The notes: generated by a model from the letters alone, not told the origin. Shown: positions 3 to 56,845, counted from the stretch's first letter. The stretch: 64,000 nt of DNA from an uncultured Verrucomicrobiota bacterium (GCA_946055075.1 CAMGEN010000004.1:3522-67521); one strand, 5' to 3'. Numbers and translations: made by a program.

Positions 3-1238
3 GTGACCAAGAACGACCAGCGTTTCGTCTACAACGGTTATCTCTGTATCAAGAAGATTGACGATTCCGCAACTGCTCACTCATCACTGCTCCCTGATCA
101 CTACTTCATCTGGGACCCGGCCGAGCCTGTCGCAACGCGTCCGCTCGGTTGGCTTGTCGTAGGAGAAAACTCCCCAACTTCTCAACCCTCAACTTCCCAA
201 CTTTTCTTTTACACCCACGACGGCAACAAGAACGTGAGTGAAGTTGTCGATGACAACGGCGAAGTTTCCGCCCACTATGAATATGCTCCATTTGGTTCTA
301 TTCTCGTCACGATCGGCGAATGTGCTTCGGCCAACCCTTGGCGTTTCTCGTCAGAGTATGCTGAAGATGATTCTGCAACAGTTTACTATAACTATCGGCA
401 TTTTAATACTTGGTTTGGCAGATGGTGTTGTGCCGATCCAATAGGTGACGTAGGTGGTTTGAATTCTTATTTATTGTGCCGGAATATGGTGACGCGGTTT
501 GTTGACTGCATAGGTTTGTTTTCCTCCTTTATCATAGAGACGCATCAGAATATTGTCCAGGCGGCGATTGATGATATGATTAAAGATGGCGACGTGATGT
601 GTTTGGCTGATGCCAAACGTAGACGCCAAATAGTCGAATACTTAAAATATACCAATGCAAAGATGGACTCTAAGTATAGCGATGATAAATATCTTGAGAT
701 GCATTTCAATAGAATTAAGGGGGATCATGATGAGTATAAGGCAATAGTAAGTTACACAAATTACCTATGGACTTGGGATACAAAAATAGAGTCTTTCATT
801 TTGAAAGGTGGAAATGATGGATGCCGTTCTGCGTTGCGGTCTTTAGGTGAGTTGACTCATATGTTGCAAGATTATTATGGGCATGGGGTTTCGTTTGATT
901 ATAATGATGGGGATGTCGACATCGAGATCGGTTATGCAGTTGGAGATCCATATAATCCGTTGATGAAGCCATCTGACTACAATGGTTATGTTGGAGGTAG
1001 TGAACATGGGCGCATATGGGATTCAGAACCTGGCATTCGTGCACCAGATGGGCCAGCTAATCCGCATCTTCCGATTACATGGGATTATGATGTTGGCAGG
1101 TTAGGAATGGCGAAAGAAGAAACAAAGAAAGCTTTCAATAATTATCTACGAAAATGGTGTGAGAAGTGTTGCAAAGCGCGGATACCTTTGGTTGGAAGAG
1201 CAAGGCCTCGTTCGCCGCATTCGGGACGTAGACATTAA
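3..1238 (+). CDS. Rhs/YD-repeat polymorphic toxin, C-terminal portion (5' end outside window): RHS repeat-associated core plus variable C-terminal toxin domain
   Basis: Frame is open to the window edge. YEYAPFG, NPWRFSSEY, YYNYRHFNTWFGRWCCADPIGDVGGLNSY and DCIGL reproduce the canonical Rhs core terminus (RYYxPxxGRFxxxDPIG...DPxGL). About 230 aa of unrelated tail follows, and the DNA becomes visibly AT-richer from ~400. Confidence 0.85.
   Translation: MTKNDQRFVYNGYLCIKKIDDSATAHSSLLPDHYFIWDPAEPVATRPLGWLVVGENSPTSQPSTSQLFFYTHDGNKNVSEVVDDNGEVSAHYEYAPFGSILVTIGECASANPWRFSSEYAEDDSATVYYNYRHFNTWFGRWCCADPIGDVGGLNSYLLCRNMVTRFVDCIGLFSSFIIETHQNIVQAAIDDMIKDGDVMCLADAKRRRQIVEYLKYTNAKMDSKYSDDKYLEMHFNRIKGDHDEYKAIVSYTNYLWTWDTKIESFILKGGNDGCRSALRSLGELTHMLQDYYGHGVSFDYNDGDVDIEIGYAVGDPYNPLMKPSDYNGYVGGSEHGRIWDSEPGIRAPDGPANPHLPITWDYDVGRLGMAKEETKKAFNNYLRKWCEKCCKARIPLVGRARPRSPHSGRRH
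172..203. repeat. Tandem 7-8 nt micro-array (reverse complement reads AAGTTGGG AAGTTGAG GGTTGAGA AGTTGGGG) inside the Rhs CDS
   Basis: ccccaacttctcaaccctcaacttcccaactt has CAAC recurring every 7-8 nt. It encodes SPTSQPSTSQL. Same unit type as the array at 44625. Confidence 0.6.
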
Positions 1239-40125: not shown

Positions 40126-43100
40126 ATGTATGATACCAAGAAGATACCTCCGGCGGTAGCGAAGATTCTGAAAGCGAGTCTTTCGCGCATTCGACACATT
40201 ATCTTGTTTCGCGGCATCTGTGCTACACTCGCCGTTTTTATCGCATCTGTTCTCGCGATCATGGCGATTGATGCGATGGTCACGATCTACTCAAACTGGG
40301 TCCGTTGGATGCTCTGGTGCGGTGTTGTCTCAGGTACTGGTTCAGTAGCCTGGTTCGCGCTTATTAAGCCGCTACGTCGCAAGATCTCGCTTTCTGATGT
40401 CGCACTCTTGATAGAGCGTAATCATCCTGAGCTGGAGGAGCGTCTGTCGACGGTCGTGGAGCTTGCGGAAGAGGGGCGGGGGGGCGAGGTGTGGTCCAAG
40501 GAACTTGTCAATGAGATCACCAAGCGCGCGATTACGGACGCTACCAAGGTCTCGCCGAAGAAGGAGTTCACCTCGCGTACGATCAAGCCCCGGTTCATCG
40601 TCGCCGCCGCCGCGGTGTTGGTCCTGCTCGGGCTCTTCGCGGCGTTTCCGACTGCTACCGCGCGACTCGTCGCGCGTGCGCTGATGCCAGCCGCCGAGGT
40701 CGACAACATCTACGCCTCGTCCCTGAAGGTTGCTCCCGGCGACCAGGTGCTGCTCGCCGGCAGCTCCTTCAAGGTGTCGCTTGCGGTCAACGGCGGCTTC
40801 CCGTCCAAGGCGTTCGTCCGCACTTCGGTGAACGGCAGGAGCGAGGCGGTCGAGCGCATGGTCCGCATGACCGAAGAGGAGGCGAAGGGTCCAATCTTCT
40901 ACGAGTTCGACTATCCTTCGGTTCACGAGAGTTTCACTTATCGCGTCAACTGTGGCAGCGCCCTCACCAAGGCGTACAGCGTGAAGGTGGTCCCGACCCC
41001 GACGTTCGTCGACCGGAAGATCCGCATCGAGCATCCTGCGTATACGGAGCGCAACCCGACCGAATACACCAACTCCGCCGAGGTCGTCGCCGTTCCTGGA
41101 TCGAGGGTAGTGATTTCGTTTAGAAAACCGCGCGAGGACATCACTGGTTACATTAAGATCCCCGGCGACTGCATCCTCGAGGCGGAGCCCGTCGGTGAGA
41201 ACGGGCTTGCCTTCGCCTTCGATGTCGGCAAGGATATGGACGGCATGTGGTCTGCGATGGCGCAGGATTCCAACGGCTTCTCGAATCAGGTCGTCTCCTC
41301 CGCGGTCACGGTTGCGAAGGACACTCCGCCCTCGGTCGAGCTTACTGTGCCGGAAACGGCCGAGATCAAGCTACCGCGTTCGGGAGTCCTGCCGGTGGAG
41401 TTCAAGGCCAAGGACGACTTCAAGGTCGCAAAGGCGGTGCTTGAGATCGCGGTCGGCACTGCCGACTACAAGGATCTGCGCGAGTTCGAGCTGTCGCAGG
41501 GACAGGACGGATACGTCGTCGGCTCCGAGATGGTGTCGATCCTCGCGCTCGGTTCGCGCCTCGGCAAGTCTGCCGCATTCCAGGTGCGCGTGCGGGTCGA
41601 AGACAACCTTCCCGAGGAACTCGGTGGACCAGGCGTCACGCGCTCCTCGTCCGTCCTCGTCGAACTTCAGACCAAGGGGCAGAACGGCAGCGACGGCGGC
41701 AAATCGCTCGGCCGGCAGGAGCTGCAGAAGCAGATCGAGGAGACCAAGAAGGAGTCGGAGGACATCCGCAGGACGCTTGAGACCGCGATGCGGCACATGG
41801 AGAACGCCAGGAACGGATACCGTCATACGAACAATCCCTGGAATCTGAACGACGCTAAGAAGAACCACGATCTCTGCAAGACCCATATCAGCAACGCGGA
41901 AGGCCTTTTCGCTGATTTCATCCAGAACCTGCTCGACACCAGACTGTCCACGGGCGCGGAGATCCTCCGCCCGGTGATGGACCGGCATCTCGTCCCCGTC
42001 CGCCAGGAGGTGGAGGATATCTACCTCGTCGACATCTCCTCTCGGTATGGCCCTGCGTGCAAGTGCTACGATCATTTCAAGGAACTCATGAAGGCGTATG
42101 ACGAGGCGCTCAAGAAATACCAGATTCTCACCAAGACCGCTGAGGACATGCAGAAGCTGGAAGACCTCAAGGAGCAGCAGGAGGCGTTGGCTGAAGCTGC
42201 TGAGAAGGGCGAGATGAGTCCGCAGGAGCTTGGCGACGCCGAGAAGCAGCTGATGGACGAGATGCAGAGGGAGCTGCAGGACGACATGCAGCGTTCGCTT
42301 GACAAGGAGATCGAGAAGGCGGAGAAGATCGCCAAGCGGATGGACGAACTCGCACAGAAGCAGAAGGATATCAAGGAGAAGATGTCCGGCGACGAACAGA
42401 AGAACTCCGAAAACCAGCTCGCCCGCGAACTCGAGAACCTGGTGCGTGAGACCGACAAGCTGCTCCAGGACGTCGAGAAGCAGACCGGGATCCCGGAACT
42501 GGACGAAAGTAGGACGGCGGAACCGCTTGAAAGCACCAAATGGAGTCAGGAGGATGCGACCGACAGCGCCAAGGATGCGGCGAAGAACCTCGGAGAACAG
42601 AAGAACGAGGAAGCCAAGGCCAACATGGATGAAGTTTCGGAGGCGCTCAGCCAGGCCAAGGAGCAGCTGACCGAAGCCCAGAACCGTATGAAGCAGGCCA
42701 ACGAGCGCTTCGCCAACGAGGCGAAGGAGATGCAGGAGCTGATGAACAAGATTAACGAGGCCATGCAGGCGGCGATGGAGGCGGCGAAGGCCGAGCTCGG
42801 CAATCAGCAGATGTCGCAGGAGCAGATGGAGCAGATGGCTCAGCAGGCGGCAGAACAGATGGCGGGTCAGGAGAAGATGTCTCCCGAACAGAGGAAAGCG
42901 ATGCTCGAGGCGATGAAGGAGAGTCTGGCGAACATGACTCCCGAGCAGGCGAAAGCGATGGCCGACGCGATGAAGGAGTCCATGAAGCAGGCGATGGAGC
43001 AGATGAAGCAGGAGTTCGGTAAGCTCTCGCCGGAAGAGCTCAAGGCGAAACTCGGCGAAATCGCAAAGCAGGCCGCGCAGGAGATGCAGCAGCAACAACA

Positions 43101-43578
43101 GCAGTCGCAGTCGCAGCAGCCGCAGTCGCCGGAGATGCAGCAGATGCAGCAGAAGTTCGAGTCCGCGGCCGAGATGATGAAGCAGCAGATGCAGCAGATG
43201 ATGCAGCAGCAGAATATGCCCCAAGAGCAATTCCAGCAACAGCAGATGCAGCAGCCGCAAAACCCGATGCAGCAGCAGATGCAGCAAATGCAGCAGAATC
43301 AGCAGAATCAGCAACAGCAGCAGGACCAGCAACAGCAGCAACAGGAGCAACAGCAGAGCAGTCAGAGCCAGCAGGAGAACCAGCAGCATCAGCAGTCTCA
43401 GAGTCAGACCAGTAATGTTCGCGAGGCTCTCGGTGAGGATGACGGCGTGGACTGGTTCCGCATGAAATCTTCTTCCTCTTCCGGTGCCGAAGCTGATCCT
43501 ATGGATGATGTTCCGAGCGAATACCGCGGATTGGTCCGTGACTATTTCAAGGCTCTCAATCAAGGAGGCAAAAAATGA
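40126..43578 (+). CDS. Membrane protein with a long coiled-coil and a Gln/Glu/Met-rich low-complexity C-terminal half (DUF4175-like)
   Basis: Two N-terminal TM segments followed by LLIERNHPELEERLSTVVEL. About 400 aa of E/K/Q coiled-coil. A Q-rich tract from 43081 to 43400. Terminal EYRGLVRDYFKALN. Confidence 0.7.
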   Translation: MYDTKKIPPAVAKILKASLSRIRHIILFRGICATLAVFIASVLAIMAIDAMVTIYSNWVRWMLWCGVVSGTGSVAWFALIKPLRRKISLSDVALLIERNHPELEERLSTVVELAEEGRGGEVWSKELVNEITKRAITDATKVSPKKEFTSRTIKPRFIVAAAAVLVLLGLFAAFPTATARLVARALMPAAEVDNIYASSLKVAPGDQVLLAGSSFKVSLAVNGGFPSKAFVRTSVNGRSEAVERMVRMTEEEAKGPIFYEFDYPSVHESFTYRVNCGSALTKAYSVKVVPTPTFVDRKIRIEHPAYTERNPTEYTNSAEVVAVPGSRVVISFRKPREDITGYIKIPGDCILEAEPVGENGLAFAFDVGKDMDGMWSAMAQDSNGFSNQVVSSAVTVAKDTPPSVELTVPETAEIKLPRSGVLPVEFKAKDDFKVAKAVLEIAVGTADYKDLREFELSQGQDGYVVGSEMVSILALGSRLGKSAAFQVRVRVEDNLPEELGGPGVTRSSSVLVELQTKGQNGSDGGKSLGRQELQKQIEETKKESEDIRRTLETAMRHMENARNGYRHTNNPWNLNDAKKNHDLCKTHISNAEGLFADFIQNLLDTRLSTGAEILRPVMDRHLVPVRQEVEDIYLVDISSRYGPACKCYDHFKELMKAYDEALKKYQILTKTAEDMQKLEDLKEQQEALAEAAEKGEMSPQELGDAEKQLMDEMQRELQDDMQRSLDKEIEKAEKIAKRMDELAQKQKDIKEKMSGDEQKNSENQLARELENLVRETDKLLQDVEKQTGIPELDESRTAEPLESTKWSQEDATDSAKDAAKNLGEQKNEEAKANMDEVSEALSQAKEQLTEAQNRMKQANERFANEAKEMQELMNKINEAMQAAMEAAKAELGNQQMSQEQMEQMAQQAAEQMAGQEKMSPEQRKAMLEAMKESLANMTPEQAKAMADAMKESMKQAMEQMKQEFGKLSPEELKAKLGEIAKQAAQEMQQQQQQSQSQQPQSPEMQQMQQKFESAAEMMKQQMQQMMQQQNMPQEQFQQQQMQQPQNPMQQQMQQMQQNQQNQQQQQDQQQQQQEQQQSSQSQQENQQHQQSQSQTSNVREALGEDDGVDWFRMKSSSSSGAEADPMDDVPSEYRGLVRDYFKALNQGGKK

Positions 43579-49857: not shown

Positions 49858-50580
49858 ATGAAAGCGTTAAAGGCATCTGGTGTTGGTTATAAGTACGGTG
49901 AACAGGAGGTTCTGAAGGACTTCGAGCTCGAACTCGATGCCGGCGATTTCGTCGCGCTGATGGGTCCGTCGGGGAGCGGCAAGTCCACGTTCCTCCATCT
50001 CGCCGCCGGACTTCTCCAGTGCCAGTCCGGCGTAATTGAGATCGGTGGTGAAAACATCGCCGCGATGAGCGACACCAAGGCGACAATTTTCCGCCGTCGC
50101 CACGAAGGCGTGATCTTCCAGTCCTTCAACCTGATGGAGAATCTGACGGTCGAGAAGAACATCGCGCTGCCGTTGAAGCTGGATGGGAAGTTGAAGTGTG
50201 AAGTTGAAGAGCGGATGGAAGAGCTGTTGAAACTGTTGGGACTGGAAGGGAAGGCTCAGCGGTTGCCGCGGGAACTGAGCGGCGGCGAACAGCAGCGCGT
50301 CGCGATTGCGCGGGCGTTATTCGCGAAGCCCGAGGTGGTGCTGGCGGACGAGCCGACCGGCAATCTCGACGCGAAGTCTTCGAAGGCGATTTGCGAGCTT
50401 CTCAAGGAAGTCAATAAGTCCGAACGAAGCGCAATCCTCCTCGTCACTCACGATCCTCAGGTCGCGGCTGCGGCGAAGAAGGTCGCGTTCCTCAAGGACG
50501 GTTCCATTGCTGCAATCCACGAGACCAATGGAGATGCCGAGAAAGTGTCCCACTTATATCTCGATACCTTCAGCAAATAG
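49858..50580 (+). CDS. ABC transporter ATP-binding protein (MacB/LolD type)
   Basis: [17 protein letters not shown] and [11 protein letters not shown]. Confidence 0.85.
50188..50209. repeat. Left arm of a 22-nt inverted repeat (AAGTTGAAGTGTGAAGTTGAAG)
   Basis: Its reverse complement occurs at 50598-50619 with 21/22 identity. Confidence 0.85.
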
Positions 50581-50597
50581 TTATCGCCATTGTTCAA

Positions 50598-50619
50598 CTT
50601 CAACTTCGCACTTCAACTT
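50598..50619. repeat. Right arm of the 22-nt inverted repeat (CTTCAACTTCGCACTTCAACTT)
   Basis: Intergenic, immediately upstream of the permease start. Confidence 0.85.
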
Positions 50620-50624
50620 TGTTC

Positions 50625-52853
50625 ATGAAGGTCCGTCATGTCTGCGCAATCCTCGGAATCGCCATCGCCGTCGGCGCGGTGGTGTTCGTCCGGTCGCTGA
50701 TCGCGACGAACGATCATCAGTCCGTCGCCGTCGCGGAGCGGCTGCTGAAGGCGCTGCCTGTCGCAACGGATGCGAAAGTCGCGACGCTGCAGCTCGACTT
50801 CCGTCCCGAAGGACATGTTCTCCAGGGGCCCCCCATGATCGCGATGATCGCGACGCGAACCGGGGAATTGGGAACGGGGAATGGTGTTATTGTCAGCAAG
50901 GCGGTCTTCGCGCAGCGGAAGGTGAAGGAGCTTCCAGGGATCGGCGAAGAGCTGACGTTGGTGGGACGCAAGGGCGCGTACAAGGTCCGGATTGCCGGAT
51001 ACCTCGACTGGGAACGTCCGGTCCGCGGATATCCCAATATGTTCATCTCGCCGGAGACCGCTGCGAAGATCGACGAGGAATGGAACGGATGGGAACCAAT
51101 GACGGCGGAAGAACTTGCGCCGATGTTCCGCAGCGATGCGGGACGTAACATGGACCGCTCTAAGCCGCTTCTTCTCTGGGCTGCGGCGCTTACCGCGCTT
51201 GCGCTCCTGCTCAATTCGCACTTCCTCATGATCGAGTCCCGCCGCAGGGAGTTAGCCACGCTGCGGATGCTCGGCATGACCCGCGGCAGGGTATGCCTGA
51301 TGATGCTGGTCGAGGCGCATGTGCTGGCGGTTATCGGAGCGGTGGCCGGGTGGTTGCTGTCCATCGTCGCGCTCTGGTTGTATGTCAAAGCCGATCCGGC
51401 GACCTTCCCGATGGGGATGGCGGTCGACCAGCGGTGCCTGGGCTGTGCCTTTGCCGGAGCGGTGCTCGTCGCCGTCATCGCGACGCTGATCGCGATGAAG
51501 AGCGCGCTCGCGGTGAAGCCGCTTGAGGCGGCCTCGAATCGTCCCCCGAAGCCCCGCCGTATCGGCATGCTCATCGCCTTCGCCTGCGGATTCGGCGCGT
51601 TTGTCGCGGTCGAGGTCTGGGGCTGCTCGCTCACCAAGCCGTTCATTCCGTCAATAGAGTGGCCGGACGCGATCATCTCGATTCTCCCCGGGGGCGTTTC
51701 GAGCTTCGATATCGAGAAGTTGCAGAAGCTTCCCGGTGTAAAGAAGATCGCTGAACTCCAGCCGCTGCAGGTGAATCTTGATCCGCTGGAGGAGTTGAAG
51801 GGGCCAGTCAGTGAAGAAGGAAGAGTGAAGAGTGAAGAGTTGCGGAAGAAGAATTCTTCAAAGGGGGGATTCGGTGGACGCGGAAAGCAGTATCGCAATG
51901 CGCTGTTGCTTGCGTCCGACTGGCTCCCGGATTTTAAACTGTCCGCTGTACCACTACCACTTCCCACTACCACTCTCGCCGAGGAATTGCAAAAAGGCGA
52001 CAACTGTATCGTCACCGAAATGATGGCTCGCGCTCACGGATGGAAGGTCGGGGATTTCGTGAAGCTGGATTGCGGACGCAACCTCAAGATGGCGCTCAAG
52101 ATCATCGGCATCGTCGATCTTAACTGGCACATGGTGACGTCGCGCGGACTGGTCCGTGGACTGAACCGGATGCCGGTGAACACCGACGGACCGGTCTTCG
52201 TCTCTTTCGACACGCTCGCCGCGTGCGATGCGCGTCCGCAGGAGTTCGTCCATATGACGCATCTGTGGCTCAGCTACGAGCCGGAATTCCTTGCGAAGCA
52301 CGGTCCGTTCCCTGCGGGACGCATCGTCGAGAAGGAGATTGTCGAGGCGCTCGGCGGAGCGTATCGCGCGGATAAGGACGGAGAGGTGCATGGTAATACG
52401 GTGCGGCTGCATTCTCGCGACGAGATCGCGGATGGCACGCTCGCGCACGGCAATCAGCTCGTCGGCGCGATGGCGCGGGTTCCGTTCATCTTCATCGCGG
52501 TGATTTCACTCGGCTTCATCGCGATGCTGGTCGCGTCCGCCGATGCCCGTCGTCGCGAGTTCGTGACGCTCCATGCGGTCGGTGCGACCAAGGCGTATCT
52601 TGCGATGCAGTTGGTGTACGAGGCGCTGAAGGTCGCGCTCTGGGGTGTCGCGCTGGGAGCCGCTGGTGGGGCGCTCGCGGGATGGCTCTTCACCACCGGA
52701 ACGCGTGCGGCGATGTCTAATTGGGGCCTTCCCGCCGCCTTTGATTTTCCTGCTGTCGTGATTATCGAGGGGGCTCTCGGCGCGCTCGTCTTCGCGCTCG
52801 TCGTCGCGGTGCCTGCATCGATGGTGATAATCTCCCGCGCCTTTCGACGTTGA
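50625..52853 (+). CDS. ABC transporter permease with two FtsX-like modules (MacB/LolE type)
   Basis: RRRELATLRMLGMTRGRV and RRREFVTLHAVGATKAYL FtsX hallmark segments, each followed by TM clusters. Large extracytoplasmic domains. Confidence 0.75.
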   Translation: MKVRHVCAILGIAIAVGAVVFVRSLIATNDHQSVAVAERLLKALPVATDAKVATLQLDFRPEGHVLQGPPMIAMIATRTGELGTGNGVIVSKAVFAQRKVKELPGIGEELTLVGRKGAYKVRIAGYLDWERPVRGYPNMFISPETAAKIDEEWNGWEPMTAEELAPMFRSDAGRNMDRSKPLLLWAAALTALALLLNSHFLMIESRRRELATLRMLGMTRGRVCLMMLVEAHVLAVIGAVAGWLLSIVALWLYVKADPATFPMGMAVDQRCLGCAFAGAVLVAVIATLIAMKSALAVKPLEAASNRPPKPRRIGMLIAFACGFGAFVAVEVWGCSLTKPFIPSIEWPDAIISILPGGVSSFDIEKLQKLPGVKKIAELQPLQVNLDPLEELKGPVSEEGRVKSEELRKKNSSKGGFGGRGKQYRNALLLASDWLPDFKLSAVPLPLPTTTLAEELQKGDNCIVTEMMARAHGWKVGDFVKLDCGRNLKMALKIIGIVDLNWHMVTSRGLVRGLNRMPVNTDGPVFVSFDTLAACDARPQEFVHMTHLWLSYEPEFLAKHGPFPAGRIVEKEIVEALGGAYRADKDGEVHGNTVRLHSRDEIADGTLAHGNQLVGAMARVPFIFIAVISLGFIAMLVASADARRREFVTLHAVGATKAYLAMQLVYEALKVALWGVALGAAGGALAGWLFTTGTRAAMSNWGLPAAFDFPAVVIIEGALGALVFALVVAVPASMVIISRAFRR
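51811..51859. repeat. Heptamer array GTGAAGA AGGAAGA GTGAAGA GTGAAGA GTTGCGG AAGAAGA ending in the 12-nt palindrome GAAGAATTCTTC, inside the permease CDS
   Basis: Read directly. Encodes SEEGRVKSEELRKKNSS. Confidence 0.8.
51942..51977. repeat. C-rich heptamer module tccgctgtaccactaccacttcccactaccact (copy 1), inside the permease CDS
   Basis: 32/33 identical to 54096-54128. Confidence 0.9.
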
Positions 52854-52856
52854 TTT

Positions 52857-52865
52857 TGGTAGAAT
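52857..52865 (+). promoter_or_regulatory. Extended -10 box TGgTAGAAT, 7 nt before the ATG (leaderless geometry)
   Basis: tggtagaat-acaatca-ATG(52873). Confidence 0.5.
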
Positions 52866-52872
52866 ACAATCA

Positions 52873-53601
52873 ATGTTGAAGTCTTGGCTAAAGCTTTTCC
52901 GCGTCGTTAATCTGCCGACTGTTCCTGGCGATGTTCTCGCTGGTGCTGCGTCGTTCTCGCTTGTCGGTAACTGTTATGCGCCGGTGTGGGTCGCGTGTGC
53001 GGCCGGGCTTTCGGTGCTGATTTACATGTTCGGATTAATTGATAATGACATTGTCGGTGTTAACTCCGATATCGGGCGCCCCATAGCGGATAGGGAAATC
53101 TCGCTCAATGTCGCACGAGCGGTCCGTTTCGTTATCCTGCTAGCGGTGTTGATAGTTGCTGGATTGGTCGGGTTGCCGGTGGACTGGTACTGGGCGGCAT
53201 TCGTTTTGATCATTGCGATTCTGGTCTACAATCGCACGAAGTCCGCGTTCCTTATGGGCTGCTGCCGCGGACTCAACGTCGGCTGCGGCTTTGCGGTAGG
53301 GAGCGGGGCGGCGGAGTCGGTCTGGTTGGACTGGCGGCTGCTGGTGCCGTTCGCTGTTGCTGGGATCTTCACGCTCTACATCGCGGCGGTTACCAAGTAC
53401 TCGGAAGGCGAGGAGCATGATCCTGTGCGCAAGGTGCGGGTTGGCATGCTGATCGGCGCCCATGTCTACCTTCAGCTCTTGACGCTGATCGTCTTCGCTC
53501 TGCTCGTGCCGTCAACCGTCCCGCTGATGGTCGCCGGCGCGATTCTGCTCGTCGTCTTGAGAATCCTTAAACATACCATGCCGGGAGTATCCGCATCATG
53601 A
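52873..53601 (+). CDS. UbiA-superfamily prenyltransferase-like membrane protein (short form)
   Basis: About 8 hydrophobic segments. LFRVVNLPTVPGD and GLIDNDIVGVNSD resemble the NDxxDxxxD motif. Confidence 0.55.
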   Translation: MLKSWLKLFRVVNLPTVPGDVLAGAASFSLVGNCYAPVWVACAAGLSVLIYMFGLIDNDIVGVNSDIGRPIADREISLNVARAVRFVILLAVLIVAGLVGLPVDWYWAAFVLIIAILVYNRTKSAFLMGCCRGLNVGCGFAVGSGAAESVWLDWRLLVPFAVAGIFTLYIAAVTKYSEGEEHDPVRKVRVGMLIGAHVYLQLLTLIVFALLVPSTVPLMVAGAILLVVLRILKHTMPGVSAS

Positions 53602-54644
53602 AGTCCATTCAGGAAATCGTCGATCTCGCCAGTGCCTACTACGGTAGTGCCGTCCTTTTCGCCGCCATTGACAATGACGTGTTCGCACGCGTCGAGCAGG
53701 GCGAGTTCAACGCGGCAGAACCGCCGCGGGGGATGCGGTTGCTGCTGGATGCGTGCGTCGCCGAAGGACTGCTGGAGAAGACGGATGGCAGGTACGCCAA
53801 CACCCAGGCCGGAAAGATGGCGCTGATTCCAGGCGGTCCGGCGGATCTTACCAAGGCGATCCGCTACAACCGCGACGTCTATCCCGCGTGGGGCAGGCTT
53901 GCCGAGTTCGCTAAGACCGGTAAGCCCGTGGAGCGTCCCGAGCTCCACCTCGGCGAAGACTCCGCACGGACCAAGGCTTTCGCCGCCTCGATGTTTGGAC
54001 GTGCGATGGGCATCGGCAAAGGCGTCATCACGATGCTTGATTTAGTTGTAGTTGAGAGTGGTAGTGGTACAAAGGCTGATAAAGCTCTTGATGATTCCGC
54101 TGTACCACTACAACTTCCCACTACCACTATTCACGTCCTCGACCTCGCCGGTGGACCGGGCGCGTACGCGATTCTGATGTGTCAGGCGAATCCCGGGATG
54201 AAGTGCGTTACGGTCGATCTTCCCGCGATCTCCGCGGAGGCGCAGGGCTATGTCGCGAAGTTCGGGCTTGCTGACCGCATCGAGTGCCGCGCGGGAGATT
54301 ATCATACGGACGAATACGAGTCCGAGGCCTATGATGTCGTCACGATCTTCGGCGCCCTCCACCAGGAGTCGCCGGCGCAGATCGTCGACATCCTCAGGCG
54401 TGCGCATCGCGCGCTCAGGAAGGGCGGGAAGGTGGTGGTACTCGACATGATGACGGACTCCACTCACACCGCTCCGAAGTTCTCCGCGCTCTTCGCGGTC
54501 AATATGGCGCTCACGACCGAAAACGGCTGGGTGTTCGCGGACAGCGAGCTCAAGGAATGGATGCGTGAGGCGGGATTTGTTCCCGGCGAGACTAAGCGGG
54601 TTCCTCCTCCGATGCCGCACTGGATCGTCGAGGGGTCTAAGTGA
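53598..54644 (+). CDS. Class I SAM-dependent (O-)methyltransferase
   Basis: VLDLAGGPGAYA (motif I), DLPAIS, GGKVVVLDMM. ATGA overlap with the upstream gene. Confidence 0.75.
   Translation: MKSIQEIVDLASAYYGSAVLFAAIDNDVFARVEQGEFNAAEPPRGMRLLLDACVAEGLLEKTDGRYANTQAGKMALIPGGPADLTKAIRYNRDVYPAWGRLAEFAKTGKPVERPELHLGEDSARTKAFAASMFGRAMGIGKGVITMLDLVVVESGSGTKADKALDDSAVPLQLPTTTIHVLDLAGGPGAYAILMCQANPGMKCVTVDLPAISAEAQGYVAKFGLADRIECRAGDYHTDEYESEAYDVVTIFGALHQESPAQIVDILRRAHRALRKGGKVVVLDMMTDSTHTAPKFSALFAVNMALTTENGWVFADSELKEWMREAGFVPGETKRVPPPMPHWIVEGSK
54045..54132. repeat. Inverted pair of heptamer arrays inside the methyltransferase CDS (GTTGTAG TTGAGAG TGGTAG TGGTACA ... 29 nt ... TGTACCACTACAACTTCCCACTACCACT)
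   Basis: Perfect 11-nt inverted repeat GTAGTGGTACA/TGTACCACTAC (54061-54071 and 54101-54111). The right arm is copy 2 of the 33-nt module. Confidence 0.8.
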
Positions 54645-54689
54645 AGAGGGGAATGGGGAATTGGGAATGGGGAATTGGGAATGAAGAAG
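54641..54689. repeat. Seven tandem heptamers GTGAAGA GGGGAAT GGGGAAT TGGGAAT GGGGAAT TGGGAAT GAAGAAG
   Basis: Spans the methyltransferase stop (54642-54644) and the start codon of the next gene. Confidence 0.9.
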
Positions 54690-55829
54690 CTGAACGTCAT
54701 AGCTGCGGGACTTGGATGGAAGGGTCTTGAAGCCGCCGGGATGACCGAGATGGCGGGACTGAAGTTCTCGCCGAAGGAGTCCTGTTTTCCCGCGGTCACC
54801 TGTGTCGCGCAGGCTAATTTCCGCACTGGGCTTACCCCCGCCGAGCACGGGATGGTCGCGAACGGCTGGTGGAGCGAGACGCTGAAGAAGCCGCTTTTCT
54901 GGGAGCAGAGCGCGAAGCTCGTAAAGGGCAGGCGCGTGTGGTCCGACCGCCGCGCTGCTGGCGAGAAGTTCGGGATGTTCTTCTTTCAGCAGTCGCTTGG
55001 CGAAGAGGTCGACCTCGTCATTTCGCCGGCGCCGGTTCACAAGCACGGCGGCGGGATGATCATGGCGTGTTACACGCAGCCGACGGGGATGGAGGCGATC
55101 ATCAGGAAGCTCTGCGGAAAGTTCCCGTTGTGGCGGTATTGGGGTCCGCTCGCGTCTCCGAAGGTCGGACGCAAGTGCATCGCGTACTTCAACGCGATGA
55201 CGGACGCGCATGATGTCGACGAGGCGTATCTGTACCTGCCGACGCTGGACTATACGGCGCAGAAGTACGGTCCCGCTTCGTCGCAGCACGCCTCGGCGCT
55301 GAAGGAGTTCCGTCATCAGCTGGAGACGCTGTCGGACATCTGCATGCACCGCGGTTGCGAGCTTTCGGTGGAGGGCGATTACGAGATCACCGAGGTGACG
55401 ATGGTTCCGGTGTGTCCGAACGTGGCGCTTCGCAAGGCGGGGTTTTTCAAGACGCGCACGGTCGGCGGCATGGCGTATCCCGACTTTTATCAGTCCTCGG
55501 CTTTCGCGATGTGTGACCACGAGTTCTGCGTCGTCTGTGGCGAGAAACGCGACGAGGCGGTGAAGCTCCTCCTTGCCACCGGCGAATACGAGCTGCCTCC
55601 GCAACCAACCTGTTCCCTGCTTCCCGCTCACTGTTCCCTGCTCCTCGCGAAGCGAGGAGCGTGGTGCGAGTACAAGTGGTGGACCGATGACCGCGAGGCG
55701 CCCGACTTCGCTTCGCACGTCGATATTCATAACAAGCCGGGCTTCGATCCAAAGGAGCTCTTCTTCTTCAACCGCGGCACTGTCCGCGGCACCCATGGGC
55801 GTCAGTGCCAGGTTGCTGCCGCGTTGTGA
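54681..55829 (+). CDS. Alkaline-phosphatase-superfamily nucleotide pyrophosphatase/phosphodiesterase-like protein
   Basis: FPAVTCVAQANFRTGLTPAEHGMVANGWW matches the metal-site Thr/His region of type I phosphodiesterases. Start is ATG 54681 or TTG 54675. Confidence 0.65.
   Translation: MKKLNVIAAGLGWKGLEAAGMTEMAGLKFSPKESCFPAVTCVAQANFRTGLTPAEHGMVANGWWSETLKKPLFWEQSAKLVKGRRVWSDRRAAGEKFGMFFFQQSLGEEVDLVISPAPVHKHGGGMIMACYTQPTGMEAIIRKLCGKFPLWRYWGPLASPKVGRKCIAYFNAMTDAHDVDEAYLYLPTLDYTAQKYGPASSQHASALKEFRHQLETLSDICMHRGCELSVEGDYEITEVTMVPVCPNVALRKAGFFKTRTVGGMAYPDFYQSSAFAMCDHEFCVVCGEKRDEAVKLLLATGEYELPPQPTCSLLPAHCSLLLAKRGAWCEYKWWTDDREAPDFASHVDIHNKPGFDPKELFFFNRGTVRGTHGRQCQVAAAL
55610..55660. repeat. Heptamer array CTGTTCC CTGCTTC CCGCTCA CTGTTCC CTGCTCC running into a 9-bp-stem hairpin GCTCCTCGC-GAA-GCGAGGAGC, inside a CDS
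   Basis: Read directly. The 12-nt ctgttccctgct repeats at a 21-nt spacing. Encodes CSLLPAHCSLLLAKRGA. Confidence 0.75.
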
Positions 55830-55835
55830 TATAAT
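55827..55835 (+). promoter_or_regulatory. Extended -10 box TGaTATAAT whose TGA is the upstream stop codon; 8 nt before the ATG
   Basis: TGA(55827-55829)TATAAT-atttgtca-ATG(55844). Confidence 0.55.
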
Positions 55836-55843
55836 ATTTGTCA

Positions 55844-56845
55844 ATGTCCAAGAAACTTGCAGTAGGTCATTTTTTGAATGCGGATTTTCAGTCCGCGTGC
55901 GCGGCGTATCTCCCGCGGATTCGCGAGGTGTTCTTTGCTTGGCCTGGGGTGGTGAGCTGCCGACCCGCGCCGGAATTCACGCCGGAGGTGCGGGCGCGGA
56001 TGTTCTCGGATCTCAGGTGGGCGAGGTCAAATGGGCTCGAACTTGATACGCTTTTCAACTGCAACTGTTATGGAGATATCGCGATCTCGCATGAGCTTGA
56101 GGGACAGATTCAGCGGGTGATGCGTGAGATGGATGTGGAAGGGCTCTTTCCGGAAACCGTGACCACGACATCACCTTTCGTATCGAAGATTTTGCGTCGT
56201 GATTTCCCTCAGGTGAAGATCCGGTGGTCGGTGAACCAGCGTGTGCACGGCTCGGTCGGCTTCGAGTATGTGCTGGACGATTTCGATTCGTTTTACGTGA
56301 GTCGTGAGCATCATCGCGATCTTTTCTATTTGCAGGATATTGCCCGCTGGGCCCGTCAGCACGGAAAGACGATCGGAATGCAGGCGAATTCCGGATGTCT
56401 GCGGCAATGTCCGTATCAGACATTCCATGACAATCTCCACGGACATGGTGCGAGTGTGCAGAACCAGCGCGGGATGAAGGATTTCGACTTCACCTACTTC
56501 CTTTGCAAGCGGACTTACGCGAAGCCGGAGCATGCGGAGGATTTCTTGCGCGCGACATGGATTCGTCCGGAGGATCTGCGGCGTTACGAGCCGCATGTGG
56601 ATATTGTGAAGATCGCGACGCGCCGTCATCCAGATCCTGTGGCGGTGCTGAAGGCATACGCGACCTATTCTTATGACGGCAATCTGGCGGCTTTGATGGA
56701 TCCAGCTCATGCATTCGGCAAGACTTTTGATAACGCCAGCTTCTCGAAGTCGCTGATCTGGCCGTTAGTATTGAACTGTCGTGACGCCAATAGTTGTAAG
56801 CACTGCGGTAAGTGTGCCGCGCTCATGAAGGAGGTTTATCGATGA
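55844..56845 (+). CDS. Hypothetical protein (Cys-rich, possibly a metal or Fe-S enzyme)
   Basis: Long ORF with normal composition. NCNCYGD, NSGCLRQCPYQTFHDNLHGH and C-terminal CKHCGKC. Family not recognised. Confidence 0.6.
   Translation: MSKKLAVGHFLNADFQSACAAYLPRIREVFFAWPGVVSCRPAPEFTPEVRARMFSDLRWARSNGLELDTLFNCNCYGDIAISHELEGQIQRVMREMDVEGLFPETVTTTSPFVSKILRRDFPQVKIRWSVNQRVHGSVGFEYVLDDFDSFYVSREHHRDLFYLQDIARWARQHGKTIGMQANSGCLRQCPYQTFHDNLHGHGASVQNQRGMKDFDFTYFLCKRTYAKPEHAEDFLRATWIRPEDLRRYEPHVDIVKIATRRHPDPVAVLKAYATYSYDGNLAALMDPAHAFGKTFDNASFSKSLIWPLVLNCRDANSCKHCGKCAALMKEVYR

Follow-up and report, generated by a model that had tools for sequence, protein, structure and literature searches.

An in-frame hairpin in a Kiritimatiellae methyltransferase gene, probably the ORF-less relic of an intervening-sequence-like cassette

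Intervening sequences (IVSs) of rRNA that carry no ORF and measure about 100 nt are known. Among the ORF-bearing kind, the IVS of Coxiella is a selfish element of 428-444 nt that combines a 28-bp terminal stem with an ORF of the PF05635 family and is excised by RNase III (PMC4990558). A different class of small repeats, the TAACTGA repeats of Beggiatoaceae, Cyanobacteria and Bacteroidetes, consists of 7-nt units in two to six copies that lie mostly just upstream of start codons, with some in ORFs; repeats of this type are direct repeats of one unit type for which a role in translational regulation has been proposed (MacGregor 2015, PMC4679880). In the part of the literature available to us, the heptamer-built P6b hairpin of the Nostoc trnL intron is also among the nearest descriptions. 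Here we analyze an 85-nt hairpin-forming repeat that lies in frame within a methyltransferase gene, at positions 54044-54128 of a 64,000-nt stretch of DNA from an uncultured Verrucomicrobiota bacterium (hereafter, the window).

The hairpin and its host gene

The arms of the element, 28-29 nt long and built of a mix of 6- and 7-nt units, face each other across a short loop (Table 1). An inverted-repeat search delimits them as 54043-54071 and 54101-54129, that is, 29 nt each, 83% complementary and 29 nt apart, and the description given in the earlier note, with arms at 54045-54071 and 54101-54128 separated by 29 nt and sharing a perfect 11-bp inverted repeat, is accurate in both coordinates and sequence. 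The 11-mer, GTAGTGGTACA/TGTACCACTAC, has three exact occurrences in the window versus 0.18 expected by chance, one mismatch allowed. The GC content of the segment is 0.40-0.45 versus ~0.62 in the flanks. The 3' part of the loop, TTGATGATTCCGC, corresponds to a "head" motif found also ahead of the array at window positions 56-70. The hexamer TTCCGC/GCGGAA was dropped as a family signature because it is common in this genome; the notable part of the head motif is the longer TTGAYGATTCCGC shared by two sites, whose adjacency was judged informally. An Rfam search of positions 50000-56000 returned no family at the element site and no rRNA.

The element forms a hairpin. Its RNA fold has an energy of -35.4 kcal/mol (z -4.4), which none of 200 shuffles equals, and its DNA fold reaches -17.9 kcal/mol (z -4.4). 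For the 92-nt core the RNA fold is -33.3 kcal/mol (z -5.5), and all three full copies fold at -33 to -42 kcal/mol, with z between -5.5 and -6.8.

Table 1. Coordinates of the host gene, the parts of the element and related arrays in the window
Feature	Position	Strand	Description
Host gene	53598..54644	+	348-aa Methyltransf_2-type SAM methyltransferase with N-terminal dimerisation domain; element at residues ~150-177
Left arm	54044..54071	+	G-rich array of 6-7-nt units, AGTTGTA GTTGAGA GTGGTA GTGGTACA; ends in GTACA apex
Loop	54072..54100	+	29 nt, AAGGCTGATAAAGCTCTTGATGATTCCGC; 100% identical in L013
Right arm	54101..54128	+	C-rich inverted copy of left arm, TGTACCACTACAACTTCCCACTACCACT
Solo right arm with TCCGC head	51942..51974	+	32/33 identical to 54096-54128; in frame in FtsX permease gene (SAVPLPLPTTT)
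AGTGAAG heptamer array, then GTTGCGGAAG head	51810..51848	+	in frame in FtsX; slot pair with 51942-51974
GGGGAAT-type array	50856..50890	+	in frame in FtsX (GELGTGNG); L001 and L002 have 21 nt (3 units) more
GGGGAAT/GGGAATT heptamer array, 5 copies	54648..54683	+	fills the spacer from the methyltransferase stop to the next start codon
TTGACGATTCCGC head and GCTCACT-type array	56..102	+	in frame in RHS-type protein (KKIDDSATAHSSLLPDH); same head as the methyltransferase element
GAAGTT(G) array	50187..50209	+	in frame in ABC ATPase gene; 95% complementary to 50598-50619

Within ORF 53598-54644 the element is read in frame and encodes VVVESGSGTKADKALDDSAVPLQLPTTTIH, between ...ITMLDL and VLDLAGGPGAYA. 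The homologues of the host protein are Kiritimatiellae proteins of 320-355 aa, and in an alignment of 30 of them all relevant length variation falls between GIGKGVVPML and VLDLAGGPGAYA, where many have GKLEGR alone as linker, at 6 aa the shortest. The best solved relative, the MTHB methyltransferase 7wdq, has ~5 residues where the window protein has ~30, and its alignment to the window protein consists of two blocks with a ~25-aa gap in between. The Pfam Methyltransf_2 catalytic-domain match begins only at residue 179, just past the segment. In the AlphaFold model (mean pLDDT 69), residues 147-177 are predicted to form a coil between a helix (122-146) and strand β-1 (178-183), with pLDDT below 50 for residues 152-174. 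The segment is a true insertion in a permissive surface loop before motif I. The earlier note had proposed just this, an in-frame palindromic insertion between these same flanking peptides, and its proposal is upheld by the short linkers of the homologues and of 7wdq, by the looping out of the segment in the model and by a copy at an unrelated locus (L013, see below). The element survives because it adds 28 codons without a stop in the host frame to a surface loop that tolerates 6 to 44 residues, and its effect on the protein is most likely that of a neutral disordered loop.

This methyltransferase slot is hypervariable and is not a conserved long linker. Some homologues do have linkers as long as that of the window protein, which the earlier note had named as grounds for doubting an insertion, but these hold unrelated inserts: direct AGTGGG arrays in L014, a different hairpin (-49 kcal/mol) in L015, and in L016 a CCCGAAC/T heptamer array that encodes RIPNPEP repeats. 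L014 and L015 are 96% identical outside the slot and yet have different inserts, hence its content turns over fast. Among close relatives, L002 has the full element, at 91% protein identity, and in L001 and L003 there remain 21-27 nt of the left arm alone. A gene-identity matrix gives (L002,(L001,L003)), with the window as their outgroup. The window lineage and L002 probably inherited the element from a common ancestor, and the left-arm remnant of L001 and L003 is probably the result of a single in-frame deletion of 69 nt in the ancestor of these two. The cluster of the host protein allele (P0001) has 31 members, with the allele intact in many assemblies.

Copies and micro-arrays outside the methyltransferase gene

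A peptide query retrieved P0121, a 75-aa ORF on L013 that carries the element and corresponds to the N-terminal variable region of IF-2, where this second copy is read in frame. The locus is unrelated, the element lying between nusA-like and mazG-like genes with the NusA-like gene upstream; a 61-nt core composed of the inner arms and the whole loop is nevertheless 100% identical to the window, and the similarity begins and ends at the arm ends. Judging from this identity, the element has spread beyond the methyltransferase gene. No direct repeat that could represent a target-site duplication is common to the flanks of both full copies; the earlier note had rightly refrained from claiming one. 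Within the 64 kb there are one full copy and one solo arm, and the non-orthologous full-length copies known are two only. We infer the mobility of the element from this distribution alone.

An exhaustive HMMER scan of 1.84 billion representative proteins, used as the census of the peptide, found it in one other protein only, P0121. A concatenated two-frame peptide query cannot serve as one, since it gave a single candidate and failed to retrieve P0001 and P0002, which are known carriers. The GTDB representative genomes do not contain the exact hairpin, and the exact loop-arm junction has no match in the JGI metagenomes; assemblies of ENA and Logan include the lineage, those of JGI do not. The matches to the hairpin that GTDB did return belong to an unrelated palindrome of Planctomycetota and Chitinophagaceae, GTAGTGGTACAGTTTG...CAAACTGTACCACTAC, which shares the 11-mer core alone, and were set aside as coincidence. 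A 67-nt palindrome, GTAGTGGTACA(G/C)TTTG ... CAAA(C/G)TGTACCACTAC, recurs in several Gemmataceae (L005, L006, L007, L008, L010 and L012), its carriers including three contigs of one Frigoriglobus MAG. This looks like a separate repeat family that has only the 11-mer core in common with the window element.

Micro-arrays are found across the whole window. Tandem Repeats Finder (TRF) detects 13 arrays with a period of 6-8 and at least three copies, versus 0.2-0.3 in codon-block or dinucleotide shuffles, which represents an enrichment of ~40-fold. At least 10 micro-arrays lie in frame inside genes, encoding among others the RHS-type protein, a transporter, the ABC ATPase and FtsX, and four are located directly upstream of start codons. 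The array at 54648-54683 occupies the position that cassette arms have in operon spacers (see below). At orthologous positions in FtsX, the flanks are ~90% conserved and the arrays differ between strains in copy number or unit type, showing that content turns over rapidly at fixed slots; in L003 (positions 1-147), the arrays at the two FtsX slots are mutually complementary.

Several further observations concern the surroundings of these arrays. The units at the two FtsX slots are AGTGAAG and TACCAC in the window and L001, AGTCGAA and GCTCACT in L002; the 94-109 nt between the slots are conserved coding sequence, and the arms seem to have been swapped at fixed slots. The GAAGTT(G) arrays at 50187-50209 and 50593-50619 form an inverted pair of 22 nt, 388 nt apart, which is approximately the length of a cassette; between them lies the 3' half of the ABC ATPase gene and no four-helix-bundle gene, and the downstream array is in the spacer before FtsX. 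The C-terminal toxin tip of the RHS-type protein (3-1238) has an unusually low third-position GC content (0.42) and contains two in-frame micro-arrays, at 72-102 and 175-203, the first of which is preceded by the TTGAYGATTCCGC head, as in the methyltransferase element. At positions 42700-43400, in ORF 40126-43578, a long coding repeat rich in CAG and ATG, which has no relation to the heptamer arrays, gives a Q/M-rich region of low complexity in a 1151-aa protein. Finally, the cluster at 49858-56845 encodes the ABC ATPase, the FtsX permease, a UbiA-like prenyltransferase, the methyltransferase, a type I phosphodiesterase and a 335-aa protein; it is conserved in L001, L002, L003 and L016, with a different gene order in L016, and may be a pathway for a prenylated, methylated compound.

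Gene-bearing cassettes and the origin of the element

L018, a relative of L013, has at the same IF-2 position, after EAAEGKK, a pair of 36-nt inverted arrays that are 92% complementary and enclose 337 nt. A 125-aa ORF begins at the inner end of the left arm and continues across the right arm; it matches TIGR02436, "four helix bundle protein" (E 4e-40), and PF05635, "23S rRNA-intervening sequence protein" (E 3e-41), and shows weak similarity to the Avd protein of diversity-generating retroelements (DGRs). When the window and L018 are compared (TCCGCTGTACCACTACAACTTCCCACTACCACT and TCCACTGTACGACTACGACTTCCGACTACGACT, respectively), the left arms have 23 identities in 28 aligned positions, while the right arms are identical at 28 of the 33 nt of 54096-54128, which comprise the arm and the 5-nt TCCGC head; from unit to unit, the differences recur at one and the same position. 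When the arms are aligned from the GTACA/TGTAC apex, changes on both sides leave the pairing intact at four stem positions, and two others pass from mismatch to pair. On this comparison of arm sequences, the window element and a full cassette have homologous arms.

The design of this cassette is general. Relatives of the L018 ORF (42-83% identity) were collected from 80 metagenomic loci, 74 of them testable; strong complementarity around the start and end of the ORF is present in 49 of these 74 and in 0 of 121 offset controls. The cassettes measure 408-546 nt (median 449 nt). Their arms are tandem arrays, with a unit that varies from locus to locus and a period of 7 in 38 of 44 cases, and the arm upstream on the ORF strand is G-rich and C-poor in 42 of 44, the polarity seen in the window element. 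At about half of the loci the cassette stands between two long co-oriented ORFs, the first of which terminates at the left arm and the second of which starts at the right arm, so the usual niche of the cassette is a spacer within one transcription unit; no rRNA context was found by Rfam in the 20 cassette loci tested. ORF-less array hairpins are present in these loci as well, their count of 11 being a lower bound since a strict hairpin scanner misses the imperfect stem of the window element.

Individual cassettes provide additional observations. The cassette ORF closest to that of L018 (L022:1451-1883, 83% identity) is frameshifted, with 96 aa in one frame and the conserved C terminus in another; the arms of this decaying copy consist of AGTTGTA units and in this resemble the outer part of the left arm in the window. 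The right arms of L080, L083 and L087 are AACTGAA/AACTGAC arrays, whose unit is the same as that of the TAACTGA start-codon repeats (PMC4679880), a hint at a common origin. L013 and L018 are contigs of 670 and 1313 nt in which the element is followed by mazG and cmk, respectively, not by the rest of infB, and they may be assemblies joined through a repeat. Element-bearing contigs are often very short (L013, L018, L014 and other ENA contigs) and continue into different genes after the element; these repeats may break or mis-join metagenome assemblies.

We conclude that 54044-54128 is probably what is left of an IVS-like four-helix-bundle cassette, a relic that has no ORF, lies in frame and is tolerated in a permissive loop. 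The full-length form of the family would be an element of ~410-550 nt consisting of a G-rich array of 7-nt units, a ~120-aa four-helix-bundle gene of the PF05635/TIGR02436 type (the "23S rRNA intervening-sequence protein", Avd-like) and an inverted C-rich array, in which the arms may be the part that acts in cis for copying. One copy would have come to lie between the last helix of the N-terminal domain and Rossmann strand β-1 of the methyltransferase, and the window element would have derived from a full cassette through loss of the ORF; the many solo micro-arrays of the window could be further-decayed arms. In the transcript, the hairpin could be a substrate for RNase III, by analogy with the stems of rRNA IVSs. 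The window element lacks an ORF, its loop being 29 nt long, and a tblastn search of the window with the cassette ORF yields arm translations only, with no intact or pseudogenised four-helix-bundle ORF. Reading the loop as the fused 5' and 3' ends of the cassette ORF is plausible by eye, but not significant against shuffles (p 0.06-0.9); with no significant homology even at the best value (p = 0.06), origin by internal deletion is plausible and unproven. We know of no role of the four-helix-bundle protein in DNA movement, and the element has no known transposase, nor a target-site duplication.

Could the hairpin have arisen where it stands, from a tandem array expanded by slippage in a permissive linker and then copied in inverted orientation by fold-back or template switching, without any mobile element? 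Such a purely local origin would fit the direct arrays at the slot in L014 and L016, the left-arm-only allele of L001 and L003, the three-unit difference between strains in the GGGGAAT array of FtsX and the missing target-site duplication. We regard it as unlikely, and L013 largely refutes it, since the 61 nt identical at that unrelated locus include the nonrepetitive 29-nt loop; besides, an arm recurs with its TCCGC head in FtsX, a gene-bearing cassette has homologous arms, and the gene-identity matrix makes the L001/L003 allele a derived deletion, not an ancestral state. Selection for the protein feature itself, with the 28 extra residues having a function as flexible linker or as interaction loop, and the palindrome in the DNA being incidental, is very unlikely, even if the allele is intact in many assemblies (the 31 members of the P0001 cluster) and was retained in L002 at 91% protein identity. 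Both the length and the sequence of the linker are hypervariable among close relatives, genes with 96% identity in their other parts included, the structural model has very low confidence in the segment, this DNA is found again in unrelated contexts, and the changes between copies preserve base pairing rather than the peptide.

The two remaining alternatives accept a mobile element, of another kind. A dedicated family of in-frame palindromes in the sense of the Rickettsia palindromic elements (RPEs), which would spread mainly into coding sequences and supply peptide modules to many proteins, is improbable: the element is in frame, palindromic, ~85 nt long and at the protein surface, with a second copy read in frame in the N-terminal ORF of IF-2 and at least 10 micro-arrays in frame in window genes, but its peptide was found in a single other protein by the exhaustive scan, full cassettes are mostly in spacers between co-oriented genes, and no curated family of RNAs or repeats is seen to be related to it in sequence. 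The size and hairpin architecture resemble those of REPINs (PMC3116915), doublets of two inverted REP-type sequences moved in trans by a RAYT, an IS200/IS605-like Y1 transposase, for whose elements the lack of a target-site duplication would be expected. We consider a REPIN-like doublet highly improbable nonetheless, as the arms are tandem heptamer arrays that differ between members and not a conserved REP motif, the gene associated with them in the loci in hand encodes a four-helix-bundle protein and not a RAYT, and REPINs are extragenic while the window element is intragenic.

Beyond the relic itself, it is conceivable, and we propose it tentatively, that PF05635-type genes bracketed by inverted heptamer arrays are widespread, unrecognised small mobile cassettes that reside mainly in operon spacers but also land in frame, and that decay into hairpins, solo micro-arrays and hypervariable loops; they could explain the cyanobacterial STRR and TAACTGA repeats that several phyla have upstream of start codons, with the rRNA IVS as one niche. 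Our literature searches turned up no paper that connects PF05635/TIGR02436 genes with inverted heptamer arrays or with in-frame relics inside protein genes. If true, this proposal would unite the ORF-bearing IVSs of 23S rRNA, the orphan four-helix-bundle "S23p" family, the start-codon heptanucleotide repeats and the in-frame palindromic inserts of enzymes, it would offer a concrete source of rapid length variation in surface loops between near-identical strains, and it would raise the testable question of whether the RNase III processing of rRNA IVS stems extends to hairpin-bearing mRNAs. For annotation, such inserts break domain matches, as with the Pfam match that starts after the insert, and they probably fragment metagenome assemblies.

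Comparison with described systems

The window element has the terminal inverted repeats, the small size and the lack of a transposase that characterize miniature inverted-repeat transposable elements (MITEs) and, as for MITEs and REPINs, a small non-autonomous palindrome appears to share its ends with a longer gene-bearing element. Unlike in MITEs, there is no target-site duplication and no recognisable transposase, the cassette gene is not a known transposase gene, and a relationship of the loop to the cassette by internal deletion is not demonstrable. The variable array arms and the intragenic position argue against membership in the REPIN/RAYT system.

With the Rickettsia palindromic elements, to which the earlier note had compared it, the window element has in common that a hairpin repeat of similar size lies in frame in a conserved enzyme, adding a surface peptide and preserving the ORF. 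The analogy holds for this behavior and not for membership: the host belongs to a different phylum (a Kiritimatiellae lineage), no sequence relation is apparent, the in-frame copies that the protein scan could detect are very few, seemingly unlike the abundance of RPEs, and the arms of the family are variable arrays, with a gene present in the full-length form. The micro-arrays throughout the window and the link to cassettes of the four-helix-bundle (23S-rRNA-IVS) protein had escaped the earlier note. The micro-arrays invite comparison with the heptanucleotide repeats (cyanobacterial STRR and TAACTGA), since the window has period-7 tandem arrays enriched over chance, four of its arrays upstream of starts and at least 10 in ORFs; inverted pairing and a four-helix-bundle gene, neither of which is mentioned in PMC4679880, set the present family apart.

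As for the IVSs, the window element differs in being located in a protein-coding gene, where it is translated in frame, and not in helix 9, 25 or 45 of 23S rRNA, and in lacking the PF05635/S23p ORF. Excision by RNase III, if it took place here, would cut the message, the element being part of an mRNA. The 7-nt tandem-array arms of the cassettes also depart from IVSs, for which we found no array arms described. Like the ORF-bearing 23S rRNA IVSs of Leptospira and Coxiella burnetii (S23p/PF05635), L018 and the 49 of 74 metagenomic loci have a long inverted-repeat stem around a ~120-aa ORF of the same family, and their size of 408-546 nt is comparable to the 428-444 nt of the Coxiella IVS (PMC4990558). 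The stem of the window element itself, with arms of 28-29 nt and an energy of -33 to -35 kcal/mol, compares with the 28-bp stem of the Coxiella element.
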